A DNA stretch of 32,000 bases from positions 3,480,001 through 3,512,000 of the forward strand of contig NZ_CP080507.1 in the NCBI RefSeq assembly GCF_019464535.1, in the 5' to 3' direction. Position 1 is the first letter of the stretch. Every line of letters begins with the position of its first letter. The notes below the pieces were generated by a model that was not told the DNA's origin, did no database searches, and saw only the letters and a program-made list of their open reading frames with translations. The stretch is from Horticoccus luteus (GTDB lineage Bacteria; Verrucomicrobiota; Verrucomicrobiia; Opitutales; Opitutaceae). Below, piece after piece: positions 10,576-28,632 of the stretch. A program made the position numbers and the translations under genes.

Positions 10576-11820
10576 TCAGGCCCGCGCCGCCGCCGACCGC
10601 GCGTGGTGCCCCGTGCGAAACGACTTCCACGCCATCGCCGCCGCCACGAACAGCAACGCCGCCGCTTCGAAAAACGCGATGCCCGGCAGGTGCACCCACG
10701 TGTCCGCCGCGATGAAATAGCCGAAGCTCCACGTGGCGATCATCGGCGCGAAGATCGCCGCGAGGCTGTTCAAGCCCGCCAGCGATCCCTGCACCGCCCC
10801 CTGCTCATCGCCCGGCACTTCGCGCGTGATCAATGCCTGCGCCGCCGGCCCGGCGATTCCGCCAAACCCGCCCGCCACGATCAGCGCATAAATCATCCAG
10901 CCCTGTGTCGCCATGCCGTAGCCGATCATCACGAGGCCGGATAACACCAGGCCCACGAGCAACCCGCGGCGTTCTCCGAGCCAGCCCAAGATCGGTTTCA
11001 CGAGCCGCCCCTGCACGATCATGCTCATCACGCCGACGAGTGCGAGCGACACCCCCACCTGCCCCGTCTGCCAGTGGTAACGATACGCCGTATAGAGCAC
11101 CCAGATGCTCTGGAGCATCACCGAGCCGAACATGAACACGAACTGCATGCCCGCGAGATCGAGCACGCCCTTGAACTTTCGCAGCAGCAGCAGCGATCCC
11201 ACCGGATTCGCCCGCCGCCACGAAAACGCCCGGCGCTTTTCCGGCGGCAACGACTCCGGCAGCACCGCAAGGCCATAGAGCCAGTTCAGCCCCACGCACC
11301 CCGCCGCGGCGAAAAACGGCAGCCGCAAATTGATCTGCCCTGCGAGCCCGCCGATCGCCGGCCCCAGCACGAAGCCCACGCCAAACGCCGCGCCCACCAA
11401 CCCGAACGCCTGCGCCCGCTTTTCCGGCGGCGTCACATCCGCGATGTAGGCGTTGCACGCCGCCAGCGCCCCCGCCGTCACTCCCGACACCAGCCGCGCC
11501 GCAAACAACCAGCCCAAATTCGGCGCGAAGCCCATGATCAGATAATCCAGACCCGTGCCCGCCAACGCCACCAGGATGATTTTCCGTCGACCGAAACGAT
11601 CCGACAGCGCGCCCAAAATCGGCGACGCCACGAACTGCATCACCGCGAAGATCGCCACCAGCCACCCATAGTCGTGCGACGCCTGCGCGACGTTGCCGTG
11701 CTCGAATTCCGTCACCAAGCCCGGCAGCACCGGCACCACGATGCCGAACCCCAGCACGAGCATCACCAACGTGACAAAAATAAACCCGACGGCCGGAGTG
11801 CGCGCGCGCGAATCGCTCAT
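10576..11820 (-). CDS. MFS transporter, TCR/Tet-like efflux family
   Basis: The track ORF 10576..12201 is trimmed to the ATG at 11820. That gives MSDSRARTPAVGFIFVTLVMLVLGFGIVVPVLPGLV, then GALSDRFGRRKIIL (MFS motif A-like) and about 12 hydrophobic segments. The 127-aa upstream extension is G/R-rich and runs into the neighbouring gene. Confidence 0.88.
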   Translation of the reverse strand: MSDSRARTPAVGFIFVTLVMLVLGFGIVVPVLPGLVTEFEHGNVAQASHDYGWLVAIFAVMQFVASPILGALSDRFGRRKIILVALAGTGLDYLIMGFAPNLGWLFAARLVSGVTAGALAACNAYIADVTPPEKRAQAFGLVGAAFGVGFVLGPAIGGLAGQINLRLPFFAAAGCVGLNWLYGLAVLPESLPPEKRRAFSWRRANPVGSLLLLRKFKGVLDLAGMQFVFMFGSVMLQSIWVLYTAYRYHWQTGQVGVSLALVGVMSMIVQGRLVKPILGWLGERRGLLVGLVLSGLVMIGYGMATQGWMIYALIVAGGFGGIAGPAAQALITREVPGDEQGAVQGSLAGLNSLAAIFAPMIATWSFGYFIAADTWVHLPGIAFFEAAALLFVAAAMAWKSFRTGHHARSAAARA

Positions 11821-11891
11821 CCCGCCGAACCGTGGCCGGCGGCCCGCCAAACGCGAGCCCGCAGCAGCCCGGCGCCCTGTCCCGCGCTCGC

Positions 11892-13217
11892 CTACAACTG
11901 CGAGCGAAACAGGCCGCAGAACCAATCCGCGCCCTTCTCCCATACCGACCGGTTCTCGAACTCCTGCTGCGTCAACCGCCGCGAGTTCTTCAAGTCGTGG
12001 TTGAAGACCGCCACATTTTTCCGCGCCACATCCGCATCGATGATGTTCGCGCTCACCTCGTCGTTGATCGAAAACGACCGGTTGTCGAAGTTCACCGAAC
12101 CGATCGTCACAAACACATCGTCCACGATCATCACCTTGCAGTGCAGCATCGCCGGTTCGAAGAGGTAAAACTCCACGCCGTGCGCCAGCAGCGGACCCCA
12201 CCGCGAACGCGACGCCATCCGACCGAAGTGCGAATCGTTTTTCGCCGGCACGATCACCTGCACCTTCACGCCCCGGTCCCGCGCGAGCAGCAACATGCGC
12301 GTCGAAAGATCATCCGGCACGAAATACGCATGCTCGATGCGGATGGACTTTCGTGCGCCCGCGATCGCGAGCAGGTAGGACATCCGCGCGTTCTCCGGGT
12401 TTTCTTGCGGCCCGCTCTTCAGGCACTGCGCTTTCGCGCGACCCACGGCATACGTCTCCGGAAAGTAATCCGGCCCCAGCAACACTTCCGCCGTGGTCTG
12501 CAGCCAGTTCGTGGCGAACACCGCCTGCATCTCCCGCACCACCGGGCCTTCGATGCGCACCTGCGTCTCCCGCCAGTGGTCCGGGTCGTCGCCATTGCCG
12601 CTCCACGTGTCGCTGATGCACATGCCGCCCGTGAACCCCACCTTGCCATCCACGATGAGCAGCTTGCGATGCGTGCGGTGGTTGATGTCGGGCTTGATGT
12701 CATACCAATGCTCGCGCCCATACGTCAGCAACTTCACCCCGGCCTTCTTCAACCGGTCGCGGTCCTCGTTCTTGAATTTCAACGTCCCCATCCCGTCCAC
12801 GATCACGTTGACCTTCACGCCCGCCGCCGCCCGTTCGTTCAGCGCCGCGATGAATTCATCGCTGATTTTGCCGGACTCCCAGATGTAGGTCTCCAGCGTG
12901 ATCGTCTTCTTCGCCTCCCGCACCGCTTTCAACATCGCGGGGAAAAACTCCACGCCGTTCACGAGCATTTGCACGTCGTTGCCACGGCTGAACTCCGCGC
13001 CCAGCAGCGGCCCGACCGAGTCCGCGAACGCCACATCCGCCGGACCGGTCGGCAGCTCGATCGGATGTTCGACGATGCTGGCGGTCGTCAGCCAGAAATA
13101 GCCGGCGCCCAAAACCACCACCGCCACGATCCAGATCCACAATCGCGACCAGTCGCCTTTTTCATGCACCCGCTTGGGTTTCTGACGGCGGGGAGAGTGG
13201 CGATGAAACAGCGACAT
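11892..13217 (-). CDS. cls: Phospholipase D / cardiolipin synthase family protein (two HKD motifs)
   Basis: Trimmed to the ATG at 13217 (MSLFHRHSPRRQKPKR...), followed by one TM segment (LWIWIVAVVVLGAGYFWL). HKD motifs HRKLLIVDGKVGFTGGMCISD and LHCKVMIVDDVFVTIGSVNFDNRS. Confidence 0.88.
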   Translation of the reverse strand: MSLFHRHSPRRQKPKRVHEKGDWSRLWIWIVAVVVLGAGYFWLTTASIVEHPIELPTGPADVAFADSVGPLLGAEFSRGNDVQMLVNGVEFFPAMLKAVREAKKTITLETYIWESGKISDEFIAALNERAAAGVKVNVIVDGMGTLKFKNEDRDRLKKAGVKLLTYGREHWYDIKPDINHRTHRKLLIVDGKVGFTGGMCISDTWSGNGDDPDHWRETQVRIEGPVVREMQAVFATNWLQTTAEVLLGPDYFPETYAVGRAKAQCLKSGPQENPENARMSYLLAIAGARKSIRIEHAYFVPDDLSTRMLLLARDRGVKVQVIVPAKNDSHFGRMASRSRWGPLLAHGVEFYLFEPAMLHCKVMIVDDVFVTIGSVNFDNRSFSINDEVSANIIDADVARKNVAVFNHDLKNSRRLTQQEFENRSVWEKGADWFCGLFRSQL

Positions 13218-15413: not shown

Positions 15414-15863
15414 ATGCCCGTCATCAGCGCCGGAATTCTCCTGCACCGCCAGCGATCCGGAAGTTGTGAGGTTTTCCTCGTGCATCCCGGCGGCCCGTTC
15501 TGGGCGAAAAAAGACGCCGCCGCGTGGTCCATCCCCAAGGGCGAGTGCGCCGCCGGCGAAGACCCGCTCGTCGCTGCGCAACGCGAGTTCACCGAAGAAA
15601 CCGGCTTTCGCGCCCCCGGCCCGTTTACTCCCCTCGGCGAAATCAAGCTCTCCAGCGGCAAACGCCTTCTCGCCTGGTCAGCGCCCGGCGACTGCGATCC
15701 GGCGCGGATCGTGAGCAACACGTTTCGTCTCGAATGGCCGCCCCGCACCGGACGTTTCGCGGAATTTCCCGAGATCGACCGCGCCGCATGGTTTCCCCTC
15801 CCCGTCGCCGCCGAAAAGCTTCACCGCTCCCAACTCCCGCTGCTCTCCGCCCTGGCTCTCTGA
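15414..15863 (+). CDS. NUDIX hydrolase
   Basis: 149 aa. Nudix box GECAAGEDPLVAAQREFTEETGF matches GX5EX7REUXEEXGU. Confidence 0.85.
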   Translation: MPVISAGILLHRQRSGSCEVFLVHPGGPFWAKKDAAAWSIPKGECAAGEDPLVAAQREFTEETGFRAPGPFTPLGEIKLSSGKRLLAWSAPGDCDPARIVSNTFRLEWPPRTGRFAEFPEIDRAAWFPLPVAAEKLHRSQLPLLSALAL

Positions 15864-16048
15864 AGAACGTCGCCGACGCGCTGGACGTGTGCGTTCGCCC
15901 GCCTCTTTCGTCCCACACCAGGCTGCCGCTGCCCGCTTCCCGCGCCTTGCCTTCCGCGATTTATGACGCAGCCTCTGCGGTTCTCTTAACCTCACGCTCG
16001 TCCGCGACCGACACCTCGATCGCAACCGTGCGTGACCCCATCCTCACC

Positions 16049-18226
16049 ATGCGTCTTGTCCCCCTGTTCCCGCCGGCCGCTCGCGCCGCGCTGCTCCTCC
16101 TCCCGCTCGCGTTCTCGGCGACTTTCGCCGCCGATACCGCCAGCACCGCCCCCATGCCCGCCACCAATCCCCTCCTCCAGCCCAGCACGCTGCCGCTGCA
16201 GTTTCCCCGCTTCGACCTGATCAAGGACGAACACTTCGCGCCCGCCTTCGAAGCCGGCATGGCCGAGGAATCGCGCGAAGTGGACGCCATCGCCAACGCC
16301 TCCGCCGCTCCCACTTTCGACAACACCATCGTCGCCCTCAACCGCTCCGGCCGCACGCTCGATCGCGTTGACCGCATCTTCTCGAATCTCGCCGGCGCCA
16401 ACACCAACCCCGCCCTCCAGGCCATCGAGCGCGAGATGGCGCCCAAGCTCGCCGCGCATAACGACGCCATTCATCTCAACGCGAAACTCTTCGCCCGCGT
16501 TTCCGCCGTTTACAATCAGCGCGCCCAACTCGGCCTCGACCCCGAGTCCCTCCGCCTCGTCGAACGCACCTACAAGGACTTCGTCCGCGCCGGCGCCCAG
16601 CTCTCCGATGCCGACAAAGTTCATCTCAAGCAGATGAACGCCCAGCTCGCCGAGCTGCAGACCACTTTCAGCCAGAACGTCCTCAAAGAGAAAAACGCCT
16701 CCAGCGTCGCCGTCGCCTCGCGCGATGAACTCGCGGGCATGTCCGAAGCCGAAATCGCCGCCACCCAGGCCGCCGCGAAAGCCGATGGCCACGCCGGTGA
16801 GTTCGTCATCCGCCTGCAAAATACCACCGGCCAGCCGCCGCTCACCGATCTCGAGGACCGCCCGCTGCGCGAGAAAATCATGGCCGCGTCCCTCGCCCGC
16901 GGCAGCCACGGCGGCGATTACGACAACCGCGCCACCGTCGCGCGCATCGTTCTTCTCCGCGCCCAGCGCGCCAACCTCCTCGGCTATCCCACGCACGCCG
17001 CCTACCAGCTCGAAGACCAGACCGCGCACGACGTCGGCACCGTCAACAAACTCCTCGCCGATCTCGCCCCGCCCGCCGTCGCCAACGCCCGCCGCGAAGC
17101 CGCCGACATCCAGCAGATCATCGACCGCGACAAAGGCGGCTTCCAAGTCACCGCCGCCGACTGGGATTTCTACGCGGAAAAAGTCCGCGCCGCGCGCTAC
17201 GCCTTCGACGAGTCGCAACTCAAACCCTACTTCGAACTCAACCGCGTGCTCACCGACGGCGTCTTCTACGCCGCCCACCGCCTCTACGGCCTCACCTTCA
17301 AAGAACGCAAGGACCTCCCCGTCTATCAACCCGACGTCCGTGTCTTCGAAGTCCACGACGCCGACGGCTCCCTCCTCGCGTTCTTCATCGGTGATTACTA
17401 CGCCCGCCCCTCCAAGCGCGGCGGCGCGTGGATGAATGCCTACGTCGCGCAGTCCACCCTCCTCGGCACCCAAGCCGTCGTCGCGAATCACCTCAACATC
17501 CCGAAGCCCTCCGACGGCCAGCCCACGCTGCTCACGTTCGACGAGGTCACCACGATGTTCCACGAGTTCGGCCACGCACTGCACGGCATGTTCTCGCACG
17601 TAAAATATCCCCGCTTCTCCGGCACCCAGGTCCCGCGCGACTTCGTCGAATACCCGTCCCAAGTGAACGAGATGTGGGCCAAGTGGCCCGAAGTCCTCAA
17701 GCACTACGCCCGTCATTACCAGACCGGCGAGCCGATGCCGCCCGAGCTCCTCGAAAAACTGCTCGCCACGCAAAAATTCAACCAGGGCTACGCCACCACC
17801 GAATACCTCGCCGCATCGATCCTCGATCAGGCGTGGCACCAGATCACCCCCGCGCAGGCCCCCGCCGCCGACGGCGTGCTCGCGTTTGAAGCCACCGCGC
17901 TGAAGAAAGCCGGCGTCGACTTCGCACCCGTGCCCCCGCGCTACCGCACGACGTATTTCTCGCACGTGTTCGAGAACGGCTACTCCGCCGGTTACTACTC
18001 CTACATCTGGGCCGAAGTGCTCGATGCCGACAGCGTCGAATGGTTCAAACAACACGGCGGCCTCACCCGCGAAAATGGCGACCACTTCCGCGCGACGCTC
18101 CTCTCCCGCGGCGGCAGCGTGGATGCGATGAAACTCTTCCACGACTTCACCGGCCGCGATCCCTACGTGGAGCCGCTCCTGAAACGCCGCGGCCTCGAAC
18201 CCGTGACGGCGACGAAAACCGAATAA
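16049..18226 (+). CDS. dcp: M3 family zinc metallopeptidase (peptidyl-dipeptidase Dcp-like), secreted
   Basis: Track ORF 15524..18226 is trimmed to the ATG at 16049, giving signal peptide MRLVPLFPPAARAALLLLPLAFSATFAAD. HEXXH zinc motif in FHEFGHALHGMF. About 725 aa, typical of Dcp/oligopeptidase A. Confidence 0.9.
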   Translation: MRLVPLFPPAARAALLLLPLAFSATFAADTASTAPMPATNPLLQPSTLPLQFPRFDLIKDEHFAPAFEAGMAEESREVDAIANASAAPTFDNTIVALNRSGRTLDRVDRIFSNLAGANTNPALQAIEREMAPKLAAHNDAIHLNAKLFARVSAVYNQRAQLGLDPESLRLVERTYKDFVRAGAQLSDADKVHLKQMNAQLAELQTTFSQNVLKEKNASSVAVASRDELAGMSEAEIAATQAAAKADGHAGEFVIRLQNTTGQPPLTDLEDRPLREKIMAASLARGSHGGDYDNRATVARIVLLRAQRANLLGYPTHAAYQLEDQTAHDVGTVNKLLADLAPPAVANARREAADIQQIIDRDKGGFQVTAADWDFYAEKVRAARYAFDESQLKPYFELNRVLTDGVFYAAHRLYGLTFKERKDLPVYQPDVRVFEVHDADGSLLAFFIGDYYARPSKRGGAWMNAYVAQSTLLGTQAVVANHLNIPKPSDGQPTLLTFDEVTTMFHEFGHALHGMFSHVKYPRFSGTQVPRDFVEYPSQVNEMWAKWPEVLKHYARHYQTGEPMPPELLEKLLATQKFNQGYATTEYLAASILDQAWHQITPAQAPAADGVLAFEATALKKAGVDFAPVPPRYRTTYFSHVFENGYSAGYYSYIWAEVLDADSVEWFKQHGGLTRENGDHFRATLLSRGGSVDAMKLFHDFTGRDPYVEPLLKRRGLEPVTATKTE

Positions 18227-18634: not shown

Positions 18635-19645
18635 TCACCGGCCCCACTGATAACCGATGCCCGCCAGGAACACGTCGGCGTCGCGATTGTAGGTCGTCAC
18701 CACACGATCCCACGTCAGCCGCACCAACCACGGCCCCGTCACCCGCACGCCCATCGTCACCGACACGAGCGGTGAGATCGCCGCGGGATTCGCCGCCCCG
18801 CCCGCCCGCGGATGCTTGCGATCGATATACACATACGGGCCGAGGCCCACGCCGACATTCAACCGGTCCTGAAAAAAATGATTCACCACCCACCCTTGCA
18901 GGGTCAGCCCGCTGCGCCGCGTGATCTCCGGATCGCCTTCGTAAACGAAACCCGCCGTCGCATCGAAATGCGGACTCAACCCCCGCCGGTATTCCGCCGC
19001 CCACGCCCGTGCGGACGGGCTTAGAAACGTGTTCACCACGCTCTGCCCGCCGAAAATCGTCAACTCGTTCGGCGTCGCTTCCTCCGCCTTCTCCGCCGAC
19101 ACCCAGTCCGGCTTCGCCCCGCGCGGCCTGCGCCCCTCCCCGAGCCACACCCCCACGCCCACCGTCGCGGTCGTCAACGCCAGCCCGTGCGCCGGATCCA
19201 CCCGATTCACCAGCACGCGATAAAACACCCGCGGCGAAAAATAGCCCGTGGCCGACACGCTGTAGATCGGCGCCACGCCGTGCTCATCCACGGACCCGCC
19301 CCCCGCGCCCCTTTGGGTGTCGTAATAATAGTCGGCGCCCGCGCCCGCCTCGAGCGCGATCCGTTCGTTAAACAACGGCCACCGCACCCAAAGCTGCGCC
19401 GCGTTGCCATCGCGATGATGGCCCGGCACGTGACCCTCGTTGATGTAGGCGATCGAAGCCGCCCAATGCCGCGCGAAATCCTGCCGGTAATCCACCTGCC
19501 ACGTGCCGCCGAATGGCTTGCCCTCATCGCGCGTGCCCACGCCACCCAGGAACGACAACTCCTGCGCCCGCAAGCCGCCGCTGAAACAGAGCCAGCCGCA
19601 AAGCACCACGCCGCCCCACCCCCAACGTTTGAGCCGAGTATTCAC
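18635..19645 (-). CDS. Secreted, internally duplicated beta-barrel-like (outer-membrane?) protein; start uncertain (GTG 19645 or TTG 19699)
   Basis: A GTG at 19645 gives (M)NTRLKRWGWGGVVLCGWLCFSGGLRAQE, a signal-peptide-like N-terminus. Alternating hydrophobic/aromatic beta-strand pattern. The two halves align to each other (see findings). No catalytic motif recognised. Confidence 0.55.
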   Translation of the reverse strand: MNTRLKRWGWGGVVLCGWLCFSGGLRAQELSFLGGVGTRDEGKPFGGTWQVDYRQDFARHWAASIAYINEGHVPGHHRDGNAAQLWVRWPLFNERIALEAGAGADYYYDTQRGAGGGSVDEHGVAPIYSVSATGYFSPRVFYRVLVNRVDPAHGLALTTATVGVGVWLGEGRRPRGAKPDWVSAEKAEEATPNELTIFGGQSVVNTFLSPSARAWAAEYRRGLSPHFDATAGFVYEGDPEITRRSGLTLQGWVVNHFFQDRLNVGVGLGPYVYIDRKHPRAGGAANPAAISPLVSVTMGVRVTGPWLVRLTWDRVVTTYNRDADVFLAGIGYQWGR

Positions 19646-19965
19646 GCCCGCGACGATAAACCCTTTCCGCCCCGCGTAACATAAGGTCTTCCCGGTCAAA
19701 CGCCCCCGAAATTCCCCCCCGCCGCCGCCGATTCACGACTCCGCCCACTCGCCCTCATCTGGGAGCGCTCTCGGAATCTTACTTCGGCCCGACGACGTTT
19801 CGCCCGCGCCCGCCGTTTTACATAAGCCTGCCCTCTCAGCCCTCCGCCATTCCTCCGCGCTCGACTCCGCCCTTGCCCCGCTATCCGAGCGCCCACAAAA
19901 ACCCCATCGGCCCGCTCCCTCCTCCGTGAACGGGGAATTCTTATTTTCACCCTCGCCGCTTCGCC

Positions 19966-22900
19966 GTGACCCCAACTCCTTCTGCAGGCCATTCAGCTCC
20001 TTCTTCCAACCCGACCTACGAGGAAGTCGCAGAGAAAATTCCCAGCGCCGTCCACGAGCAGGACATCGAAGACCTGTTCATCCAAAAGCTGCGCGACCTC
20101 AAATACACCGACCGTCCCGATATCCACGACCGCGCCTCACTCGAAGCCAACTTCCGCGAAAAGTTCGAGGCCCTCAACCGCGTCCGCCTCACCGACGCCG
20201 AGTTCGCCCGCCTGCTCGAAGAGATCGTCACGCCCGATGTCTTCACCGCCGCCAAGACTCTCCGCCAGATCAACGCCTTCACCCGCGACGACGGCACGCC
20301 GCTCAACTACACCTTGGTCAACATCAAGGACTGGTGCAAAAACACCTTCGAGGTCGTCAACCAGCTCCGCATCAACACCGACTACAGCCACCACCGCTAC
20401 GACATCCTGCTCCTCATCAATGGCGTGCCCTGCGTGCAGATCGAGCTGAAGACCCTTGGCATCCATCCGCGCCGGGCCATGGAGCAGATCGTCGATTACA
20501 AGAACGACCCCGGCAACGGCTACACCAAGACGCTCCTGTGCTTCCTCCAGCTCTTCATCGTCAGCAACCGCGACAGCACCTACTACTTCGCCAACAACAA
20601 CGCCCGCCATTTCTCCTTTAATCAGGACGAGCGTTTCCTGCCCATCTACCAGTTCGCCGACGAGGCCAACAAAAAGATCACCCACCTCGACGACTTCGCC
20701 GCCACCTTCCTGGTGAAATGCACCCTCGGCCACACCATCAGCCGCTACATGGTGCTCATCCAGAGCGAGCAGAAGCTGCTCATGATGCGTCCGTATCAGG
20801 TCTATGCGGTAAAGCACCTCGTCACCTGCATCCAGCAGGACAGCGGCAACGGCTTCATCTGGCACACCACGGGCAGCGGCAAGACCCTCACCTCCTTCAA
20901 GGCCGCCACCCTCCTCAAGGACAATCCCGACCTCGCCAAGTGCCTCTTCGTCGTGGATCGCAAGGACCTCGACCGGCAGACGCGCGAGGAGTTCAACCGC
21001 TTCCAGGAAGGCTGTGTTGAGGAAAACACCAACACCGCCGCCCTCGTGCGCCGCCTGCTTTCCGAGGACTACGCCGACAAGGTCATCGTCACCACCATCC
21101 AGAAGCTCGGCCTCGCCCTCGACGAGACCAGCAAGCGCAACCAGCAGCGGAAAAAGAACGACCAGCCCACCTACAAGGAGATGCTCGCCCCGCTGCGCGA
21201 CCAGCGCATCGCCTTCATCTTCGACGAGTGCCACCGCTCCCAGTTCGGCGAGAACCACCGGGCCATCAAAGAATTCTTCCCCCGCGCCCAGCTCTTCGGC
21301 TTCACCGGCACGCCCATCTTCGAGGAAAACGCCGCCCAGCAGAAGATCGAGGACACCCAGGCCTCCATGAAGACCACGGAAGACCTCTTCCAGAAACGTC
21401 TCCACGCCTACACCATCACCCACGCCATCGAGGATGGAAACGTCCTCCGCTTCCACGTCGATTACTACACCCCGGGAACGCCGACGTCCCCGTCGGCAGG
21501 TTCGAGCTCGGAGCCGACGAGGACGTCGGCGCTCCCAGGCTCGGCGCTCCCAGCCCTCGCCAAACGCGCCGTCATCGAGGCCATCCTCCAAAAACACGAC
21601 ACCGCCACCGGCGGACGCCGCTTCAACGCCCTCCTCGCCACCTCCTCCATCAACGACGCCATCGAATACCACGCGTTGTTCGCCACCCTGCAGGCCGAGA
21701 AACAGAAGGCCGATCCCGATTATAAACCGCTCAATATCGCCTGCGTCTTCTCCCCGCCCGCCGAGGGCGATCCCGATGTGAAGCAGATCCAGGAAGATCT
21801 GCCGCAGGAGCAGGCCGACAACGAGGTCGAGCCCGACCAGAAAAAGGACGCCCTCAAGGCCATCCTCGCCGACTACAACACCCGCTACGGCACCAATCAC
21901 CGCATCTCCGAGTTCGATCTCTACTATCAGGACGTCCAGAAGCGCATCAAAGACCAGCAGTGGCCCAACTCCGACTACCCCGCCGCGCAGAAAATCGACG
22001 TTACCATCGTGGTGGACATGCTGCTCACCGGCTTTGATTCCAAATACCTGAACACGCTCTACGTGGACAAGAACCTCAAGCACCACGGCTTGATCCAGGC
22101 CTTCTCCCGCACCAACCGCGTGCTCAACGCCACCAAGCCCTACGGCAACATCCTCGACTTCCGCCAGCAGCAGGACGCCGTCGATGCCGCCATCGCCCTC
22201 TTCTCCGGCGAAAAGACCGGCCAGCAGGCCCGCGAAATCTGGCTCGTGGACAAGGCCCCCGTGGTCATCGAGAAACTTGCCGCCGCCGTGCAAAAGCTCG
22301 ACGCCTTCATGAAGTCGCAGGGCCTCGACTGCGCGCCCTCCTCCGTCGCCAACCTGAAGGGCGATGCCGCCAAGACAGTTTTTATTGAGCGTTTCAAGGA
22401 AGTCCAGCGGCTCAAAACCCAGCTCGATCAATACACCGACCTGACCGAAGAAAACAAAGCCGCCATCGAGCAGGTGCTGCCGGATGAAAGTCTGCGCGGT
22501 TTTAAAGGCCAGTATCTGGAAACCGCCAAGAAACTCAAAGAGCAGCAGGGCAAAACCACGGGCGGCAAAGCAGACGCCGACGATCCCGTGGCCCAGATCG
22601 ACTTCGAGTTCGTGCTCTTCGCCTCCGCCGTCATTGATTACGACTACATCATGGGCCTCATCGCCAGGTTTGCCGGTCAGACGACTGGCAAAGTTAAGAT
22701 GAGCCGCGACGAACTCGTCGCCCTCATACGCGGCCAGTCCAACCTCATGGATCAAAGCGACGACATCGTCGCTTACATCGACTCGCTCAAAGAGGTCAAA
22801 GGCCTCGGCGAAGACGCCATCCGCGACGGCTACACCCGCTTCAAAGCCGAGAAAGACGCCGCCGAACTCGCCGCCATCGCGCAAAAACACGCCCTCGCCC

Positions 22901-23106
22901 CCGCCGCCCTGCAAACCTTCGTGGACGGCATCCTCACCCGCATGATCTTCGACGGCGAGCACCTGAGCGATCTCATGGCTCCGCTCGACCTCGGCTGGAA
23001 AGCCCGCACCCAGGCCGAACTCGCCCTCATGGCCGACCTGCTCCCCCTCCTCACCAAACGCGCCGGTGGCCGCGACATCTCAGGACTCAGCGCGTATGAG
23101 CAGTAA
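19966..23106 (+). CDS. hsdR: Type I restriction enzyme, R (restriction/translocase) subunit
   Basis: 1046 aa with a GTG start. Walker A / helicase motif I in WHTTGSGKTLTSF, DEAH-type motif II in FIFDECHRSQFG, motif III in FGFTGTP, and later LLTGFDSKYLNTLYVDKNLKHHGLIQAFSRTNR. Confidence 0.93.
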   Translation: MTPTPSAGHSAPSSNPTYEEVAEKIPSAVHEQDIEDLFIQKLRDLKYTDRPDIHDRASLEANFREKFEALNRVRLTDAEFARLLEEIVTPDVFTAAKTLRQINAFTRDDGTPLNYTLVNIKDWCKNTFEVVNQLRINTDYSHHRYDILLLINGVPCVQIELKTLGIHPRRAMEQIVDYKNDPGNGYTKTLLCFLQLFIVSNRDSTYYFANNNARHFSFNQDERFLPIYQFADEANKKITHLDDFAATFLVKCTLGHTISRYMVLIQSEQKLLMMRPYQVYAVKHLVTCIQQDSGNGFIWHTTGSGKTLTSFKAATLLKDNPDLAKCLFVVDRKDLDRQTREEFNRFQEGCVEENTNTAALVRRLLSEDYADKVIVTTIQKLGLALDETSKRNQQRKKNDQPTYKEMLAPLRDQRIAFIFDECHRSQFGENHRAIKEFFPRAQLFGFTGTPIFEENAAQQKIEDTQASMKTTEDLFQKRLHAYTITHAIEDGNVLRFHVDYYTPGTPTSPSAGSSSEPTRTSALPGSALPALAKRAVIEAILQKHDTATGGRRFNALLATSSINDAIEYHALFATLQAEKQKADPDYKPLNIACVFSPPAEGDPDVKQIQEDLPQEQADNEVEPDQKKDALKAILADYNTRYGTNHRISEFDLYYQDVQKRIKDQQWPNSDYPAAQKIDVTIVVDMLLTGFDSKYLNTLYVDKNLKHHGLIQAFSRTNRVLNATKPYGNILDFRQQQDAVDAAIALFSGEKTGQQAREIWLVDKAPVVIEKLAAAVQKLDAFMKSQGLDCAPSSVANLKGDAAKTVFIERFKEVQRLKTQLDQYTDLTEENKAAIEQVLPDESLRGFKGQYLETAKKLKEQQGKTTGGKADADDPVAQIDFEFVLFASAVIDYDYIMGLIARFAGQTTGKVKMSRDELVALIRGQSNLMDQSDDIVAYIDSLKEVKGLGEDAIRDGYTRFKAEKDAAELAAIAQKHALAPAALQTFVDGILTRMIFDGEHLSDLMAPLDLGWKARTQAELALMADLLPLLTKRAGGRDISGLSAYEQ

Positions 23107-24400
23107 GACGAAAACCGCCGCCACACAGAAAGTCGCAACGCCCACGCTGGTTCCGCAGCTGCGGTTTCCCGGATTCAAAGATCCGTGGGTGTATGAGCCG
23201 CTGTCGAAGGTTCTAAAGGAACATAAACTCAAGAACACCGCAGGCCGGGATGTTTTCTCGGTCTCGATGGAATTCGGCATCGTCAACCAAATCGAACTCT
23301 TGGGCCGCAGTTTCGCAGCAGCTGATACTTCGCACTACACTATCGGGCGGCGCTTTGATGTGGTTTACACAAAAAGCCCGTTGAAGGCCTTTCCCTTTGG
23401 CATCGTCAAGCAATGCAAGTTCGACGGGGAGGTCGCCCTCTCTCCTCTTTACGGTGTGTTCACGCCGCCCAACCCGCACCTGGGTTTGATGATCGAGGCC
23501 TATTTTGAATCACCAAATCGGTCGAAGGACTTCCTTTCGCCGCTTTGCCAAAAGGGTGCGAAGAATACACTTCAGATCACAAACACGACCTTCCTGTCTG
23601 GCCGTCTCCCGCTTCCTACGCATCCCGCCGAACAACAAAAAATCGCCGAGTGCCTGAGTTCGGTGGACGAGCTGATCGCCGCGCAAGCGCGGAAACTGGA
23701 CGCGCTCAAGACCCATAAAAAAGGGCTAATGCAGCAGCTTTTCCCCCGCGAAGGCGAAACCCAACCCCGCCTCCGTTTCCCCGAATTCCAAAACGCTGGG
23801 GAGTGGGAGACGCAACCATTTGAGCAGTTTGTAACGAAGTCCTTCTACGGCACGTCCAGTTCAACTTCACCGGCAGGAAGGTATCCGGTCCTCCGCATGG
23901 GAAACATGGTGGACGGCGGCTTGGATTTCACAAACTTGGTCTATCTCGATTTGGATGCCGAATCATTTGAATCGTTCCGATTAGAGAACGGAGATATTCT
24001 TCTCAATAGAACCAATAGTCCTGCGCTGGTCGGAAAGATTTCGCTCTTCCAGCTCAAGTCGGAGTGCATGACTGCCTCCTACATCGTCTCGTATCGCCTG
24101 AACAAAAAGCGAATCGACCCTTCGTTTTGCAACTCGATGCTGAACACGCCGCTGTATCAGTCGCGGATAAGGTCGTTCGCAAAGCCAAGCGTCAGCCAAG
24201 CGAACATCAACCCGACGACTTTCAAAAAGGACTTGATGGTTTCGGTCCCATCGCTCCCCGAACAACAACGCATCGCTGACTGCCTGACCCGCCTCGACGA
24301 CCTCATCGCCGCGCAAACCCAAACGCTCGAAGCCCTCAAGACCCACAAGCAAGGCCTGATGCAGCAGCTGTTCCCTGCGGGGGCAGGAAGTGGGAATTGA
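23096..24400 (+). CDS. hsdS: Type I restriction enzyme, S (specificity) subunit, two TRDs
   Basis: The ATG at 23096 overlaps the hsdR stop by 11 nt, with AGGA about 10 nt upstream. It begins ...LVPQLRFPGFKDPW. Two conserved spacer regions: EQQKIAECLSSVDELIAAQARKLDALKTHKKGLMQQLFP and EQQRIADCLTRLDDLIAAQTQTLEALKTHKQGLMQQLFP. Confidence 0.9.
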   Translation: MSSKTKTAATQKVATPTLVPQLRFPGFKDPWVYEPLSKVLKEHKLKNTAGRDVFSVSMEFGIVNQIELLGRSFAAADTSHYTIGRRFDVVYTKSPLKAFPFGIVKQCKFDGEVALSPLYGVFTPPNPHLGLMIEAYFESPNRSKDFLSPLCQKGAKNTLQITNTTFLSGRLPLPTHPAEQQKIAECLSSVDELIAAQARKLDALKTHKKGLMQQLFPREGETQPRLRFPEFQNAGEWETQPFEQFVTKSFYGTSSSTSPAGRYPVLRMGNMVDGGLDFTNLVYLDLDAESFESFRLENGDILLNRTNSPALVGKISLFQLKSECMTASYIVSYRLNKKRIDPSFCNSMLNTPLYQSRIRSFAKPSVSQANINPTTFKKDLMVSVPSLPEQQRIADCLTRLDDLIAAQTQTLEALKTHKQGLMQQLFPAGAGSGN

Positions 24401-24467
24401 GAAGTGAGAATTGGGAATTGGGGATTTAGAAAAACACAACGCCCCGCCCTCCGTTTTCTCACTTCTC
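24401..24467. repeat. Copy A of the ~60-67 bp repeated element with terminal inverted repeats (left of rhuM)
   Basis: GAAGTGAGAATTGGGAA...TTTAGAAAAA...CCCTCCGTTTTCTCACTTCTC. The arms GAGAAGTGAGAA (24399-24410) and TTCTCACTTCTC (24456-24467) are reverse complements. Further partial copies are GAAGTGGGAATTGA at 24388 and TTCTCACTTCT at 24478. Confidence 0.7.
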
Positions 24468-24487
24468 ACTTCAAAATTCTCACTTCT

Positions 24488-24505
24488 ATAAAATGTTAAT
24501 TTTAT
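24488..24505. promoter_or_regulatory. AT-only palindrome over the rhuM start codon
   Basis: ATAAAAT GTTA ATTTTAT is a perfect 7-bp inverted repeat. The rhuM ATG (24493-24495) lies inside it. Confidence 0.35.
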
Positions 24506-25497
24506 ACACCACCGAAGACGGCAAAAGCCGCATCCAGCTCCGCGCCAAAGACCAAACCGTCTGGCTGAGCCAGCGGGAGATGGCCCAACTCTTTGACGTC
24601 AGCACCGACAATATCGGCCTGCACCTCAAGAACATCTACGAGGACGGCGAACTCGTCCGCGAGGCAACTACCGAGGAATCCTCGGTAGTTCAAATCGAGG
24701 GTGGTCGCGAGGTGCAGCGCCCGGTCGCGCTCTACAATCTCGATGCCATCCTCGCCGTCGGCTATCGCGTCCGTTCCCCGCGCGGTGTCCAGTTCCGCCG
24801 CTGGGCCTCCACCATCCTGAAGGAATACCTGACCAAGGGCTTCGCCATGGACGACGAGCGGCTCAAAAATCCCGACGGCCGCCCGGACCACTTCGACGAG
24901 ATGCTCGCGCGCATCCGCGACATCCGCGCCTCGGAAAAGCGGTTTTACCAAAAAGTCCGCGATCTCTTCACCCTCTGCACCGACTACGACAAGACCGACC
25001 GCACCACCCAGCAGTTTTTCGCCACCGTCCAAAACGTCCTGCTCTACGCCGTCACCCGGCAAACTGCGGCGGAGCTCATCACCGCACGGGCGAATCCCGC
25101 CGATCCCCATTTCGGCCTGCTCGCCTGGAAGGGCGACCAAGTGCGTAAGGCGGACATCGTCGTGGCCAAGAACTACCTGACCGAGGACGAAATCGACACC
25201 CTGAACCGCCTCGTCGTCATCTTCCTGGAAACCGCCGAACTGCGGGCCAAGAACAAGCAGGAGACGCGCATGAGTTTCTGGAAACAGAACGTGGACCAGA
25301 TCATCACCTCCAACGGTTTTCCGCTTCTCACCCACACGGGGTCCATCAGCCACGAGCAGATGGAAGCGCACACCGGCGAGCTTTACCTCAGGTTCGATCA
25401 AGACCGCAAAAAGCAGGAGGCCATCGAAGCCGACCAGCAAGACGAGGCCGAACTCAAAGCGCTGGAAACCAAGATTAAACGCCGGGAAAAGAAGTGA
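24493..25497 (+). CDS. rhuM: RhuM family (Virulence_RhuM) protein
   Basis: 334 aa. The N-terminus MLILYTTEDGKSRIQLRAKDQTVWLSQREMAQLFDVSTDNIGLHLKNIYEDGEL and downstream NLDAILAVGYRVRSPRGVQFRRWASTILKEYLTKGF...IRASEKRFYQKVRDLF are hallmark RhuM sequences. Confidence 0.88.
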   Translation: MLILYTTEDGKSRIQLRAKDQTVWLSQREMAQLFDVSTDNIGLHLKNIYEDGELVREATTEESSVVQIEGGREVQRPVALYNLDAILAVGYRVRSPRGVQFRRWASTILKEYLTKGFAMDDERLKNPDGRPDHFDEMLARIRDIRASEKRFYQKVRDLFTLCTDYDKTDRTTQQFFATVQNVLLYAVTRQTAAELITARANPADPHFGLLAWKGDQVRKADIVVAKNYLTEDEIDTLNRLVVIFLETAELRAKNKQETRMSFWKQNVDQIITSNGFPLLTHTGSISHEQMEAHTGELYLRFDQDRKKQEAIEADQQDEAELKALETKIKRREKK

Positions 25498-25549
25498 GAA
25501 TTGGGAATTTAGAAAAAGAGCCACCTCCAACCCTCCGTTTTTCTCACTT
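25491..25549. repeat. Copy B of the repeated element (right of rhuM, upstream of vapB)
   Basis: GAAGTGAGAATTGGGAATTTAGAAAAAGAGCCACCTCCAACCCTCCGTTTTTCTCACTT. The first 17 nt, the TTTAGAAAAA block and CCCTCCGTTTT(T)CTCACTT match copy A. The arms AAGTGAGAA and TTCTCACTT are reverse complements. The rhuM stop codon lies in the left arm. Confidence 0.7.
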
Positions 25550-25570
25550 GAAACTTCCCTTCGGAGCACT

Positions 25571-25596
25571 TTCGCATAAAAATGCTTTTATGCGAA
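25571..25596. promoter_or_regulatory. Perfect 11-bp inverted repeat over the vapB start codon (candidate TA operator)
   Basis: TTCGCATAAAA ATGC TTTTATGCGAA. The right arm contains the vapB ATG (25590-25592). Confidence 0.45.
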
Positions 25597-25850
25597 CCAC
25601 CCTTGATCTGCCCGATCCGCTTTTTCGTGAACTCAAGGCCCGGTCCGCCCTGCGCGGTGTGCTGCTCAAGGACTTCGTCGCCGAAATCCTCCAGACCGGC
25701 CTCGCCCAGACCGCCGCCGCCCAAGCCGAAGCCCGCCCCCGCAGCCCCTTGCCCGTAATCCGCAAGGCCACGGGCGTCGCCCACCCCGCCCTTTCCAACC
25801 GCGAAATCGACGCCCTGCTCGTCGCCGAGGATGCCCATGGCGGCAATTGA
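25590..25850 (+). CDS. vapB: VapB-type antitoxin
   Basis: The track ORF is trimmed to the ATG at 25590. That gives 86 aa starting MRTTLDLPDPLFRELKARSALRGVLLKDFVAEILQTGL, a typical antitoxin N-terminus. It sits immediately upstream of, and overlaps, a PIN gene. Confidence 0.75.
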   Translation: MRTTLDLPDPLFRELKARSALRGVLLKDFVAEILQTGLAQTAAAQAEARPRSPLPVIRKATGVAHPALSNREIDALLVAEDAHGGN

Positions 25851-26271
25851 CGTTCCCGACCTCAACCTCTGGCTCGCTCTCATCGACCCGGACCACGCGC
25901 ACCACGTCCGCGCCCGCCGCTACTGGGAACACGAAGCCGCCGCCGAAATCGCCTTTTGCCGCGTGACCATGCTCGGCCTGCTCCGCCTGCTCACCAACTC
26001 GCGGGTGATGCACGGAGCGCCTTTCACCCCCGTCGAGGCGTGGGATGCTTACCAAGCCTTCACCGTCCTGCCCGAGGTCTGTTTCGCCGAAGATTCCCTC
26101 GCCGCCGAAAAACGCTTCGAACTTTGGAGCCGCATCCCGGATTTTCCCGCCCACCGTTGGACGGACGCTTGGATCGCCGCGCTCGCCTCGTCTGCCGGTG
26201 CCCGCGTCGTCTCCTTCGACTCGGATTTCACCACCTTCCCCGATCTCGATCTGCTCCATCTGCGCCCATGA
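25837..26271 (+). CDS. vapC: PIN-domain toxin (VapC family ribonuclease)
   Basis: MAAIDVPDLNLWLALIDPDHAHH...TDAWIAALASSAGARVVSFDSDFTTFPDLDLL shows conserved acidic positions typical of PIN. The ATG at 25837 has GAGG 6 nt upstream. An alternative ATG is at 25831. The gene overlaps the vapB 3' end. Confidence 0.85.
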   Translation: MAAIDVPDLNLWLALIDPDHAHHVRARRYWEHEAAAEIAFCRVTMLGLLRLLTNSRVMHGAPFTPVEAWDAYQAFTVLPEVCFAEDSLAAEKRFELWSRIPDFPAHRWTDAWIAALASSAGARVVSFDSDFTTFPDLDLLHLRP

Positions 26272-27875
26272 CCGACACCAACCAAAAGAAGCTGGGCTCC
26301 ACCCTCTGGGGCATCGCCGACCAACTGCGCGGGGCGATGGATGCGGACGACTTCCGCGACTACATGCTGTCCTTCCTCTTCCTGCGCTATCTCTCGGATA
26401 ATTACGAGACGGCGGCCAAGAAGGAACTCGGCAAAGACTATCCCGCGCTGCCGGCCGACGACCGCCGCGTGCCGCTGGCCCTGTGGTATGCCAACAACCC
26501 GGACGACATCCCCGCCTTCGAGAAGCAGATGCGCCGCAAGGTTCACTACGTCATCCAGCCCGCGCATCTCTGGAACAGCATCGCCGGCATGGCCCGTACC
26601 CAAAACCCGGAGCTGCTCAACACGCTCCAAGCGGGCTTCAAATACATCCAGGACGAATCCTTCGAGAGCACCTTTGAAGGCCTCTTTTCCGAGATCGATC
26701 TCGCTTCGCCCAAACTCGGCAAGGTCTATGCCGACCGAAACGCCAAGCTCTGCACCATCATCCAGAAAATCGCCGAGGGCCTGAACGAGTTCTCCACCGA
26801 CATCGACGCGCTGGGCGATGCCTACGAATACCTGATCGGCCAGTTCGCCGCCGGGTCCGGCAAGAAGGCGGGCGAATTCTACACCCCGCAGCAGATTTCC
26901 GACATCCTCTCCACCATCGTCACGCTCGACAGCCAATCTCCCGACCAAGGCCCCAAGAAGCGCCTCGAAAGCGTGCTCGATTTCGCCTGCGGCTCCGGCT
27001 CCCTGCTGCTCAACGTCCGCAAGCGCATGGGCCCGCAAGGCATCGGCAAGATCTACGGTCAGGAAAAGAACATCACCACCTACAACCTCGCCCGCATGAA
27101 CATGCTGCTGCACGGGGTGAAGGATACGGAGTTCGAAATCTACCACGGCGACACCCTCACCAACGAGTGGGACATCCTCCGCGAGCTGAACCCTGCGAAA
27201 AAACCCAGCTTCGACGCCATCGTCGCCAATCCGCCCTTCAGCTACCGCTGGGAGCCAACCGACGCCCTGGGTGACGACGTTCGGTTCAAGAACCACGGCC
27301 TCGCCCCCAAGTCCGCCGCCGACTTCGCCTTCCTCCTCCACGGCTTCCACTACCTCAAAGACGAAGGCGTGATGGCCATCATCCTGCCCCACGGCGTGCT
27401 CTTCCGTGGCGGTGCCGAAGAACGCATCCGCACCAAGCTGCTCAAAGACGGCCACATCGACACCGTCATCGGCCTGCCCGCGAACCTCTTTTATTCCACG
27501 GGCATCCCGGTCTGCATCCTCGTCCTCAAAAAGTGCAAGAAGCCCGACGACGTGCTCTTCATCAACGCCGCCGAGCACTTCGTAAAAGGCAAACGCCAGA
27601 ACCAACTCACGCCGGAGCACATCGCCAAGATCATCGAGACCTACAAGTTTCGGAAAGAAGAGCCCCGCTATTCCCGCCGGGTGGAGATGGCCGAGATCGA
27701 GAAGAACGAGTTCAACCTAAACATCTCCCGCTACATCAGCACGGCGACCGCCGACGAGGAAATCGACCTCGCAACGGTCCACAGCGAACTGCTCGGCTTG
27801 GACACGAAAATCCGAGCCGCGACCGAAAAACACAACGACTACCTCAAGGAGCTCGGCCTGCCGACCCTGCCGTAA
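26268..27875 (+). CDS. hsdM: Type I restriction enzyme, M (N6-adenine DNA methyltransferase) subunit
   Basis: The track ORF is trimmed to the ATG at 26268 (MTDTNQKKLGSTLWGIADQLRGAMDADDFRDYMLSFLFLRYLSDNYE, i.e. an HsdM_N domain). SAM motif I is LDFACGSGSLLL and catalytic motif IV is ANPPFSYRW. The ATG overlaps the vapC TGA (ATGA). Confidence 0.93.
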   Translation: MTDTNQKKLGSTLWGIADQLRGAMDADDFRDYMLSFLFLRYLSDNYETAAKKELGKDYPALPADDRRVPLALWYANNPDDIPAFEKQMRRKVHYVIQPAHLWNSIAGMARTQNPELLNTLQAGFKYIQDESFESTFEGLFSEIDLASPKLGKVYADRNAKLCTIIQKIAEGLNEFSTDIDALGDAYEYLIGQFAAGSGKKAGEFYTPQQISDILSTIVTLDSQSPDQGPKKRLESVLDFACGSGSLLLNVRKRMGPQGIGKIYGQEKNITTYNLARMNMLLHGVKDTEFEIYHGDTLTNEWDILRELNPAKKPSFDAIVANPPFSYRWEPTDALGDDVRFKNHGLAPKSAADFAFLLHGFHYLKDEGVMAIILPHGVLFRGGAEERIRTKLLKDGHIDTVIGLPANLFYSTGIPVCILVLKKCKKPDDVLFINAAEHFVKGKRQNQLTPEHIAKIIETYKFRKEEPRYSRRVEMAEIEKNEFNLNISRYISTATADEEIDLATVHSELLGLDTKIRAATEKHNDYLKELGLPTLP

Positions 27876-28020
27876 GCCAGCTCAGGCACGCCAACGCCCG
27901 AAATGTGCTGAGCGAAACGACAGATCTGCAACGCACACGTGGCCGAAGCCGCCGTCGACGAAGTGATTTCTCGCCGACATCGCTTCCGCATCCCTCGCCT
28001 CCCTCGCAGACTCGCCGCCC

Positions 28021-28401
28021 TCACTCGCGGTGAAACGCCTTCTTCAATTCCTGCTTCGCCGCCTGCAGCGTGCGCCGTTTGGACGCCGAGAGATTCGAGC
28101 CCGCCCGATTTTCGAAAAAGCTGATCATCGAAACCGCCGAGCGGTAAGGATTCGTCTTCCGCCGATGACTGTGTTCCGACGATCGCTTCACCGACCGCGC
28201 GATCTTCTTCGGGTCGTTGCTTTTGAAAATATCCTTCTCGAGCGTCATCGCATCGCTCGTGCGCGTGACCTTCGCCGACCACTTCCGCCCGTCGCGCGGC
28301 GTCCGACGTTTCGCCGCCCGCCGTTTCGCCGGCGCACGGCCCTTGCTCGCGGACGCACCCCGACGCGACGATGAACCGGTAGACTTTCGAGTCGTTTTCA
28401 T
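28021..28401 (-). CDS. DUF3175 domain protein
   Basis: Track ORF 28021..28878 is trimmed to the ATG at 28401. That gives MKTTRKSTGSSSRRGASASKGRAPAKRRAAKR...WSAKVTRTSDAMTLEKDIFKSNDPKKIARSVKRSSEHSHRRKTNPYRSAVSMISFFENRAGSNL, a pattern recalled as DUF3175. Confidence 0.72.
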   Translation of the reverse strand: MKTTRKSTGSSSRRGASASKGRAPAKRRAAKRRTPRDGRKWSAKVTRTSDAMTLEKDIFKSNDPKKIARSVKRSSEHSHRRKTNPYRSAVSMISFFENRAGSNLSASKRRTLQAAKQELKKAFHRE

Positions 28402-28632
28402 CGGACAACTTTTCGCTCCACCGTCCTCGCGCAAGCCCGCTCCGCGCCCGACATTCCCTGATTTCCCCCCTCGGGCCGCACCTGCGATTTCTCGCCTGCT
28501 GCTTCGCTCGTTCGCCGCCTTCCTTCGCCGCCGGCACGTCGCCGCCCTCCCACTTCGCTCTCCACGCCCCCTGCGGCACCGCCTGAAAACCGTTCTCGCC
28601 AGAGCCTCTTTTTCGCGCGCAAATTTTTGCGC

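Follow-up and report, generated by a model that had tools for sequence, protein, structure and literature searches.

In the window analyzed here, a stretch of 32,000 nt from the Horticoccus luteus contig NZ_CP080507.1 (positions 3,480,001 to 3,512,000), the genes of a type I restriction-modification (R-M) system share one strand with genes for a RhuM protein and a VapBC toxin-antitoxin pair, in the order hsdR-hsdS-rhuM-vapB-vapC-hsdM. We favor the reading, with a probability of about 0.7, that this locus is an acquired type I system of the layout R-S-slot-M, in which the slot between hsdS and hsdM holds RhuM and a VapBC cassette that arrived later. A preliminary description of the same DNA had seen a canonical operon interrupted by RhuM and VapBC, and had treated the coupling of hsdS to hsdR and the distance to hsdM as peculiarities of this locus. 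Comparison with related loci contradicts both points, as the R-S-slot-M order is invariant across a family with members in E. coli, and the coupled hsdS and distant hsdM are traits of that whole family.

A search for HsdM relatives, taking one genome per GTDB species, returned at least 577 relatives, the best 80 of which were used for comparison (L001-L080). These proteins are 80-95% identical in amino acid sequence and come from Verrucomicrobiota, Pseudomonadota, Cyanobacteria, Planctomycetota, Acidobacteriota and other groups. All three genes are present in 49 of the loci, and in all 49 they lie on one strand in the order hsdR, hsdS, hsdM, with hsdS overlapping or abutting hsdR in 28. hsdS and hsdM lie more than 600 nt apart in 57 of 62 loci. 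In 28 of 57 loci the final open reading frame (ORF) of the slot shares an ATGA with the start of hsdM, and in another 16 it comes to within 30 nt of that start. Annotated E. coli genomes have the same hsdR-hsdS-slot-hsdM layout with a PrrC homologue as cargo (51-52% identical, E 1e-128). Among E. coli records with a PrrC match (85 records from 83 genomes), all 14 listed were consistent with the order S-PrrC-M, the criterion being that hsdS and/or hsdM was annotated at the match or that the match was confined to an ATPase gene. We take R-S-slot-M to be the fixed architecture of a widespread type I family. The idea that the hsdR-first order is an anomaly was rejected, and no special explanation of it is required because the entire family is built in this way. 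In type I enzymes, the control of restriction during establishment is generally post-translational, through assembly or proteolysis.

To describe the cargo, the slot ORFs of 57 loci were clustered and the cluster representatives were scanned with profiles. PrrC was found in the slot of about 33 of these loci (PADLOC 1.2e-137; Pfam AAA_13) and RhuM, the second most common cargo, in about 20, while several loci carry both in the order S-PrrC-RhuM-M. Rarer occupants are DUF1016/YhcG (PDC-S02), Bro-N (PDC-S13), PD-Lambda-5_A, a Ppl-like ABC ATPase, an HD protein and IS200 transposases. Where rhuM is present it nearly always abuts hsdM, and usually overlaps its start. The slot after hsdS has the appearance of a recombination hot spot that gathers self-contained defense or addiction genes. 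The preliminary description had compared the position of RhuM and VapC with that of PrrC, and this analogy is correct as to position, since both occupy the slot that is more often filled by PrrC. Absence of the inserts from homologous loci, or other cargo in their place, had been named as an argument against a composite module. Most homologous loci do carry other cargo, and vapBC is absent from all of the 80 best HsdM-relative loci; yet one lineage shares rhuM-vapBC-hsdM by descent.

Cargo is also found at the hsdR/hsdS junction, a second and less used site with a gap of more than 300 nt in 18 of 49 loci. This junction holds a TrlF-family ATPase plus an RNA-binding protein in an E. coli locus (L116) and DUF1016/YhcG in L118-L120. 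The largest slot, of 5.9 kb (L044:4156-9963), contains a Ppl-like ABC ATPase of 891 aa, a 392-aa protein with weak SIR2/pAgo-associated matches, RhuM and a 325-aa gene that lies between rhuM and hsdM, a second case of an insert wedged there.

The genes of the window were identified by searches with Pfam, NCBIfam (TIGR) and PADLOC profiles, and the coordinates, order and strand of the six ORFs in the preliminary description were confirmed (Table 1). Five of the identities follow from profile matches, and the 86-aa vapB product was assigned from its position and co-conservation. The families that had been proposed for checking, HSDR_N/ResIII, Methylase_S, RhuM, PIN and HsdM_N/N6_Mtase, were all matched, and the description of the locus as a composite of an R-M operon, RhuM and a VapBC pair proved sound.

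Table 1. Coordinates of genes and other features of the R-M locus within the window
Feature	Coordinates	Strand	Description
hsdR, type I restriction subunit	19966..23106	+	1046 aa, GTG start; Pfam, TIGR00348, PADLOC REase_I
palindromic in-frame insertion within hsdR	21471..21539	+	inverted repeat I4, 27-nt arms, 89% complementary
hsdS, specificity subunit	23096..24400	+	434 aa; Methylase_S in two stretches; PADLOC Specificity_I 1.5e-83
IG1 hairpin element	24386..24490	+	no ORF; inverted heptamer repeats (GAGAAnT)n ... (AnTTCTC)n
rhuM, slot accessory gene	24493..25497	+	334 aa; PF13310, PADLOC PDC-S05
782-bp block	25485..26266	+	new 3' end of rhuM, IG2 hairpin remnant and vapBC; absent from L121 and L122
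IG2, truncated second hairpin copy	25488..25565	+	aligned with IG1 and the complete IG2 of L118
vapB-like antitoxin	25590..25850	+	86 aa; constant partner upstream of VapC
vapC, PIN-domain toxin	25837..26271	+	144 aa; alternative ATG 25831 gives 146 aa
hsdM, methyltransferase subunit	26268..27875	+	535 aa; HsdM_N, N6_Mtase, TIGR00497

The R-M subunits carry the sequence features of type I membership, namely an HsdR with an N-terminal nuclease domain and a superfamily 2 (SF2) helicase/translocase, an HsdS with two target-recognition domains and an N6-adenine methyltransferase with HsdM_N and N6_Mtase. HsdR contains HSDR_N, ResIII/SWI2_SNF2, T1R_D3-like and EcoR124_C (PF12008, 8.9e-65) domains, and matched TIGR00348 at 2.7e-115 with 386 bits (cutoff 284.55) and REase_I of PADLOC at E=0. 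HsdM matched TIGR00497 at 4.9e-117 with 391.7 bits (cutoff 242.75). Inspection of the translations by eye revealed intact TGSGKT and DECH motifs in HsdR and an intact NPPF motif in HsdM. HsdS matches its relatives only in the central and C-terminal conserved regions (23607-23809 and 24248-24375), the target-recognition domains being different, and its gene contains an internal direct repeat, D2, of 118 nt (23628-23745 and 24258-24375). As judged from these features the region is an intact type I R-M system, and an HsdR2M2S complex would restrict unmodified DNA. The palindrome within hsdR adds 16 residues and replaces about 12 others in a linker of HsdR, and the segment is not present in HsdR of L118, L121, L122 or E. 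coli.

The three overlaps reported in the preliminary description were read directly in the sequence. The hsdS ATG at 23096 precedes the hsdR TAA at 23104-23106, giving an overlap of 11 nt, the vapB stop codon (25848-25850) falls past the vapC ATG, giving an overlap of 14-20 nt, and the vapC TGA and hsdM ATG share ATGA at 26268-26271. The end of hsdS lies 1867 nt from the start of hsdM. The claim that all six genes occupy one strand with almost no free space stands as far as the tight single-strand packing is concerned, but two gaps, at 24401-24492 and 25498-25589, are occupied by two copies of a structured hairpin element.

RhuM matched PF13310 (Virulence_RhuM) over its full length (5e-107, 357 bits, positions 1-251 of the 252 in the model) and PDC-S05 of PADLOC at 2.4e-147 with 488 bits. 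An exact-sequence look-up of this protein returned no contig, and an NCBI RhuM protein of Horticoccus luteus (Opitutaceae, Verrucomicrobiota) proved to be 100% identical to it. A sequence search of the PDB gave nothing meaningful (best E 0.3). An AlphaFold2 model built with 40 close homologues was poor (pLDDT 60, pTM 0.41), and Foldseek found no match to it in the PDB at E <= 0.001. The alignment was too shallow, as the best 120 protein matches were all 85-100% identical to the query.

VapC matched PF01850 at 1e-10 and TIGR00028 at 4e-28 with 98.4 bits (cutoff 73.6). Among 24 homologues the acidic residues D5, D8 and D128 are invariant and D110 and D130 are at least 90% conserved; the homologues are 144 aa long and therefore the start is probably at 25837, with a 14-nt overlap with vapB. 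The 86-aa ORF upstream had no match in Pfam, NCBIfam or PADLOC. Its product is weakly similar to ribbon-helix-helix (RHH) antitoxins and ParD (E 0.11), and all related loci that extend far enough encode a partner of this size, with 63-99% identity, immediately before VapC. The pair resembles VapBC of the Mycobacterium type (TIGR00028; VapC43) in that the PIN toxin is about 144 aa long, conserves its acidic residues and is preceded by a small overlapping antitoxin gene, and differs from it in the weak similarity of the toxin to solved VapC structures (E 0.011), with VapC43 of M. tuberculosis as a weak match, and in an antitoxin without a profile match.

The point at which vapBC entered the slot could be located by comparing loci that share nearly the same RhuM. 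RhuM proteins that are 96-98% identical to that of the window come from three types of loci, which are R-S-RhuM-M (L121), R-S-two small ORFs-RhuM-M (L122 and L123), both without vapBC although RhuM identity is 97-98%, and R-DUF1016-S-RhuM-VapB-VapC-M, which is intact in L118, L119 and L120 (a metagenome-assembled genome, or MAG, and two other metagenomes). A blastn alignment of the window with L121 and L122 extends over 24505-25484 and resumes at 26267, and in those two loci rhuM overlaps hsdM directly as ATGA. According to our model, vapBC would have arrived after RhuM in an insertion of 782 bp that also brought in a hairpin element and fell precisely between rhuM and hsdM, and the insertion would have recreated the ATGA overlap with hsdM. 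The cassette itself (25566-26274) recurs at 83-91% nucleotide identity in other Verrucomicrobial contexts; a look-up in metagenomes and among RhuM neighbors led us to reject the idea that vapBC is unique to this locus. In 17 of 31 related vapC loci an hsdM 5' scar lies directly after vapC (z >= 10 relative to shuffled sequences; an 18th scar, in L084, is weaker, z = 4.7), and in L087, L090, L097 and L098 the hsdM 5' end is duplicated on both sides of the cassette. These scars show that this vapBC clade has repeatedly been resident at the hsdM 5' end.

Rearranged relatives were also encountered. In L082 (positions 300-1620) and L083, vapBC is followed by a 127-aa N-terminal hsdM fragment and the C-terminal end of hsdM lies upstream on the opposite strand, which is the signature of an inversion and deletion within an ancestral vapBC-hsdM unit. 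In L084 the 3' end of hsdM lies upstream of vapBC in direct orientation. L118 contains a second pair of a small ORF and a PIN gene (89 aa and 143 aa) at 11588-12285, immediately downstream of hsdM, so that in this relative toxin-antitoxin modules have collected on either side of hsdM.

The intact or decayed state of each module was tabulated for 38 loci. Intact vapBC accompanies a truncated hsdM in L082-L084, L095, L097, L098 and L100, and an intact hsdM with rhuM reduced to a fragment in L091. About 12 loci have intact vapBC without any R-M genes, and three of these are still scarred. Loci L087 and L090 present another picture, as rhuM is intact beside fragments of hsdR and hsdS, vapB is deleted, vapC contains an in-frame stop codon and hsdM is absent. 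In-frame stops in vapC were also found in L088, L092 and L105 and L110-L112 are truncated, and the notion that vapBC always outlives the R-M genes was rejected on these grounds. Thus, the modules are separable, which argues against an obligatory guarding by the R-M complex. We also determined dN/dS (the ratio of nonsynonymous to synonymous substitution rates) between the window and L118 for the five genes other than hsdS. The dS values were similar in all five (0.21-0.32), which fits descent as a unit, and dN/dS values ranged overall from 0.02 to 0.26 (hsdR 0.23, rhuM 0.06-0.07, vapB 0.02, vapC 0.11 and hsdM 0.13). These five genes are under purifying selection.

Several observations indicate that the operon came from outside. 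Homology to the nearest Opitutaceae relatives ends exactly at the hsdR start and the hsdM stop, within which hsdR is 92-93% identical in nucleotide sequence to that of Opitutaceae MAG loci, and blastn against the closest loci (L001, L002, L118 and L121) detected no homology outside hsdR...hsdM. The GC content is 0.52-0.63 within the locus and about 0.64-0.71 in the adjoining flanks. From the homology limits and the drop in GC content the operon is recognized as a horizontally acquired island. No integrase or transposase was matched in the screened flanks (about 11.9-19.7 kb upstream and about 28.0-32.0 kb downstream).

Taken as a mechanism, the favored reading has the following parts. Translation of hsdM would be coupled to that of the slot cargo, so that translating the upstream genes would always yield methylase as well. 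RhuM would be an independent, self-contained second anti-phage layer. VapB would neutralize the VapC RNase, and the pair would mainly stabilize the island by addiction and could add abortive infection. The modules would be co-inherited and co-expressed but mechanistically independent of each other. All six genes are probably carried on a single transcript, given the tight spacing, the overlaps and a lost vapBC -35 box: most other copies of vapBC have a near-consensus promoter, TTGACC-17-TAAAAT, right upstream of vapB, whereas in the window and L118-L120 a hairpin arm has replaced the -35 box, with only the -10 box kept in the window and L118. A scan for terminator-like sites between 19500 and 28500 gave 19, a modest excess only over the 11.1 ± 3.3 found in shuffled sequences.

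Four points weigh against this reading. As to the single transcript, a scan for sigma-70-like promoters over 19500-28500 found none at all, and the scan may not cover Verrucomicrobial promoters. The case for RhuM as an independent effector is drawn from one preprint, which concerns another homologue, together with the decay series. In the genomes with relic loci, a further R-M system at some other site might supply the missing functions in trans. Finally, the position of rhuM beside hsdM and the slot that it shares with PrrC are also predicted by a physical partnership of RhuM with HsdM.

The preliminary description had proposed that the embedded genes are guarded by the R-M complex. In this explanation RhuM and/or VapC would be held latent by HsdMSR, as PrrC is by EcoprrI, until the complex is inactivated by an anti-restriction protein of a phage. 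The PrrC precedent for such an arrangement is well established (PMC3014915; PMC12707154), RhuM and VapBC lie in the exact slot that holds PrrC in about 33 homologous loci, and RhuM adjoins hsdM, usually with an overlap, in nearly all RhuM-bearing loci and is without an antitoxin partner. However, PrrC joins an N-terminal ABC-ATPase domain to a C-terminal anticodon-nuclease domain, and RhuM, VapB and VapC had no PrrC or AAA_13 match in Pfam or PADLOC. For VapC guarding is improbable, as this toxin comes with an antitoxin of its own, and at least seven loci with a truncated or absent hsdM retain it intact, as do about 12 without R-M genes. For RhuM the proposal keeps some standing but is weakened by the intact gene beside decayed hsdR and hsdS in L087 and L090, where no hsdM is left, and by a PDC-S05 homologue that, when cloned alone, reportedly protected E. 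coli, lowering T7 and T5 plating about 1000-fold (10.1101/2024.09.26.614923). We regard guarding in either form as unlikely. The conjecture can be widened, in that the R-S-slot-M family as a whole might be a general guard platform in which the slot gene is translationally coupled to HsdM and its product is physically checked by the R-M complex in the manner of PrrC. RhuM would then be a second, chemically different guarded effector that is triggered by anti-restriction proteins, and VapBC a recent add-on exploiting the same coupling; we consider this distinctly unlikely.

Another explanation makes VapBC a wholly selfish element that entered a permissive junction, is of no benefit to the host and persists by addiction alone. 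Its patchy presence among near-identical loci, its survival where decay has left no other genes intact and its pseudogene copies in L087, L088, L090, L092, L105 and L110-L112 would all be expected from such an element. This explanation largely overlaps the favored reading, differing only in denying a defense benefit, and the strong purifying selection on vapB and vapC points to functional proteins and cannot separate addiction from defense; in its strict form we find it quite improbable. Least probable of all is a regulatory role, in which the autoregulated promoter of the cassette and the vapC-hsdM coupling (the vapC stop overlaps the hsdM start in the window, L082, L091, L095 and L118) would express hsdM independently of hsdR and so solve the problem of R-first establishment, because the promoter found upstream of vapB in most other copies has lost its -35 box to the hairpin arm in the window and L118-L120, the 49 R-first loci manage without vapBC, and an ATGA likewise couples RhuM, PrrC and other cargo to hsdM.

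The favored reading of R-S-slot-M with exchangeable cargo can be set against known systems. EcoprrI of E. coli is a type IC system with the embedded anticodon nuclease PrrC, and its published order is hsdM-hsdS-prrC-hsdR (PMC3014915). The locus resembles EcoprrI in having an accessory gene directly after hsdS in a type I operon, and differs in its order, hsdR-hsdS-slot-hsdM here and in 49 of 49 relatives, and in its cargo of RhuM and VapBC, neither of which matches the PrrC model. In type IC enzymes the central conserved region of HsdS contains TAEL repeats (PMC3874165). HsdR in the window shares the EcoR124_C domain with the type IC systems EcoR124I and EcoprrI, but its HsdS has no TAEL and the gene order differs. 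On account of the EcoprrI order and the HsdS without TAEL, the R-S-slot-M family is best placed as a permuted relative and not as classical type IC.

Embedded genes, which are common in type I R-M, have also been described in BREX and DISARM, and PDC-S05, which has the RhuM domain, was derived from genes embedded in defense systems (Payne et al., 10.1101/2024.01.29.577857). As in PDC-S05, a full-length RhuM is embedded on the same strand in a type I system; in contrast, a toxin-antitoxin cassette here parts RhuM from hsdM, which it normally abuts. PIN toxin-antitoxin genes that are transcriptionally coupled to type I subunits have been described, in arrangements that vary between close species and so imply recent rearrangement (Matelska et al. 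2017, PMC5499597). The locus shares with those cases a PIN toxin and antitoxin in a type I operon that is not conserved between relatives, and here the history is also traceable in a 782-bp insertion, a shared hsdM scar and a decay series over more than 30 loci. Embedded defense genes, the PrrC guard paradigm and PIN toxin-antitoxin genes in type I operons are thus already published, and the locus is ordinary for its class. What is added here is the family-wide R-S-slot-M layout, the alternation of PrrC and RhuM as cargo, and a reconstruction of vapBC insertion and decay at the level of base pairs.

These results are of interest in four respects. A type I family that is very widespread across phyla and extends to E. 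coli has a slot set aside for cargo, which is swapped at precise borders and usually overlaps the hsdM start. RhuM is placed in the same slot as PrrC. The loci R-S-RhuM-M and R-S-RhuM-VapBC-M and the decayed relics form a natural near-isogenic series for the dependence of RhuM on R-M. Lastly, the relics show clearly that a toxin-antitoxin cassette can survive the defense system into which it had inserted.

The two hairpin elements that flank rhuM were also characterized. IG1 is predicted to fold as RNA at -44.9 kcal/mol (z = -5.8), and its repeat motif was never seen in shuffled sequence. Related sites are present at L097:3757-4186, L118:8990-9090, L046:1660-1700 and L015:4690-4780. The right arm of IG1 is identical at 31 of 33 positions to that of the element in L097, which is about 430 bp long, lies inside the hsdM 5' end, encodes a 119-aa 23S_rRNA_IVP (four-helix-bundle) ORF and has an apparent target duplication of about 16 nt, seen by eye only. 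IG1 and IG2 look like ORF-less derivatives of an L097-type element, resembling miniature inverted-repeat transposable elements (MITEs). As direct repeats on either side of rhuM, they could mediate its loss. A search of Rfam gave only two sub-threshold matches to plant miRNA precursors, which reflect the hairpin shape at 21471-21540 and 24386-24487.

The surroundings of the operon contain a DUF3175 gene downstream (28030-28401, minus strand), a 354-aa ORF without a Pfam match upstream (18635-19699, minus strand) and, farther upstream, a Peptidase_M3 gene (15524-18226). GC skew is negative in every 1-kb stretch of the whole window (1-32000), ranging from about 0 to -0.33, and its cumulative value declines steadily from -0.15 to -12, while many stretches have a positive AT skew. 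Parts of the window have candidate ORFs on either strand, and before about 13.5 kb most of the longest ones with high GC content at third codon positions (GC3) belong to the minus strand. This skew pattern may be a replication-strand bias.

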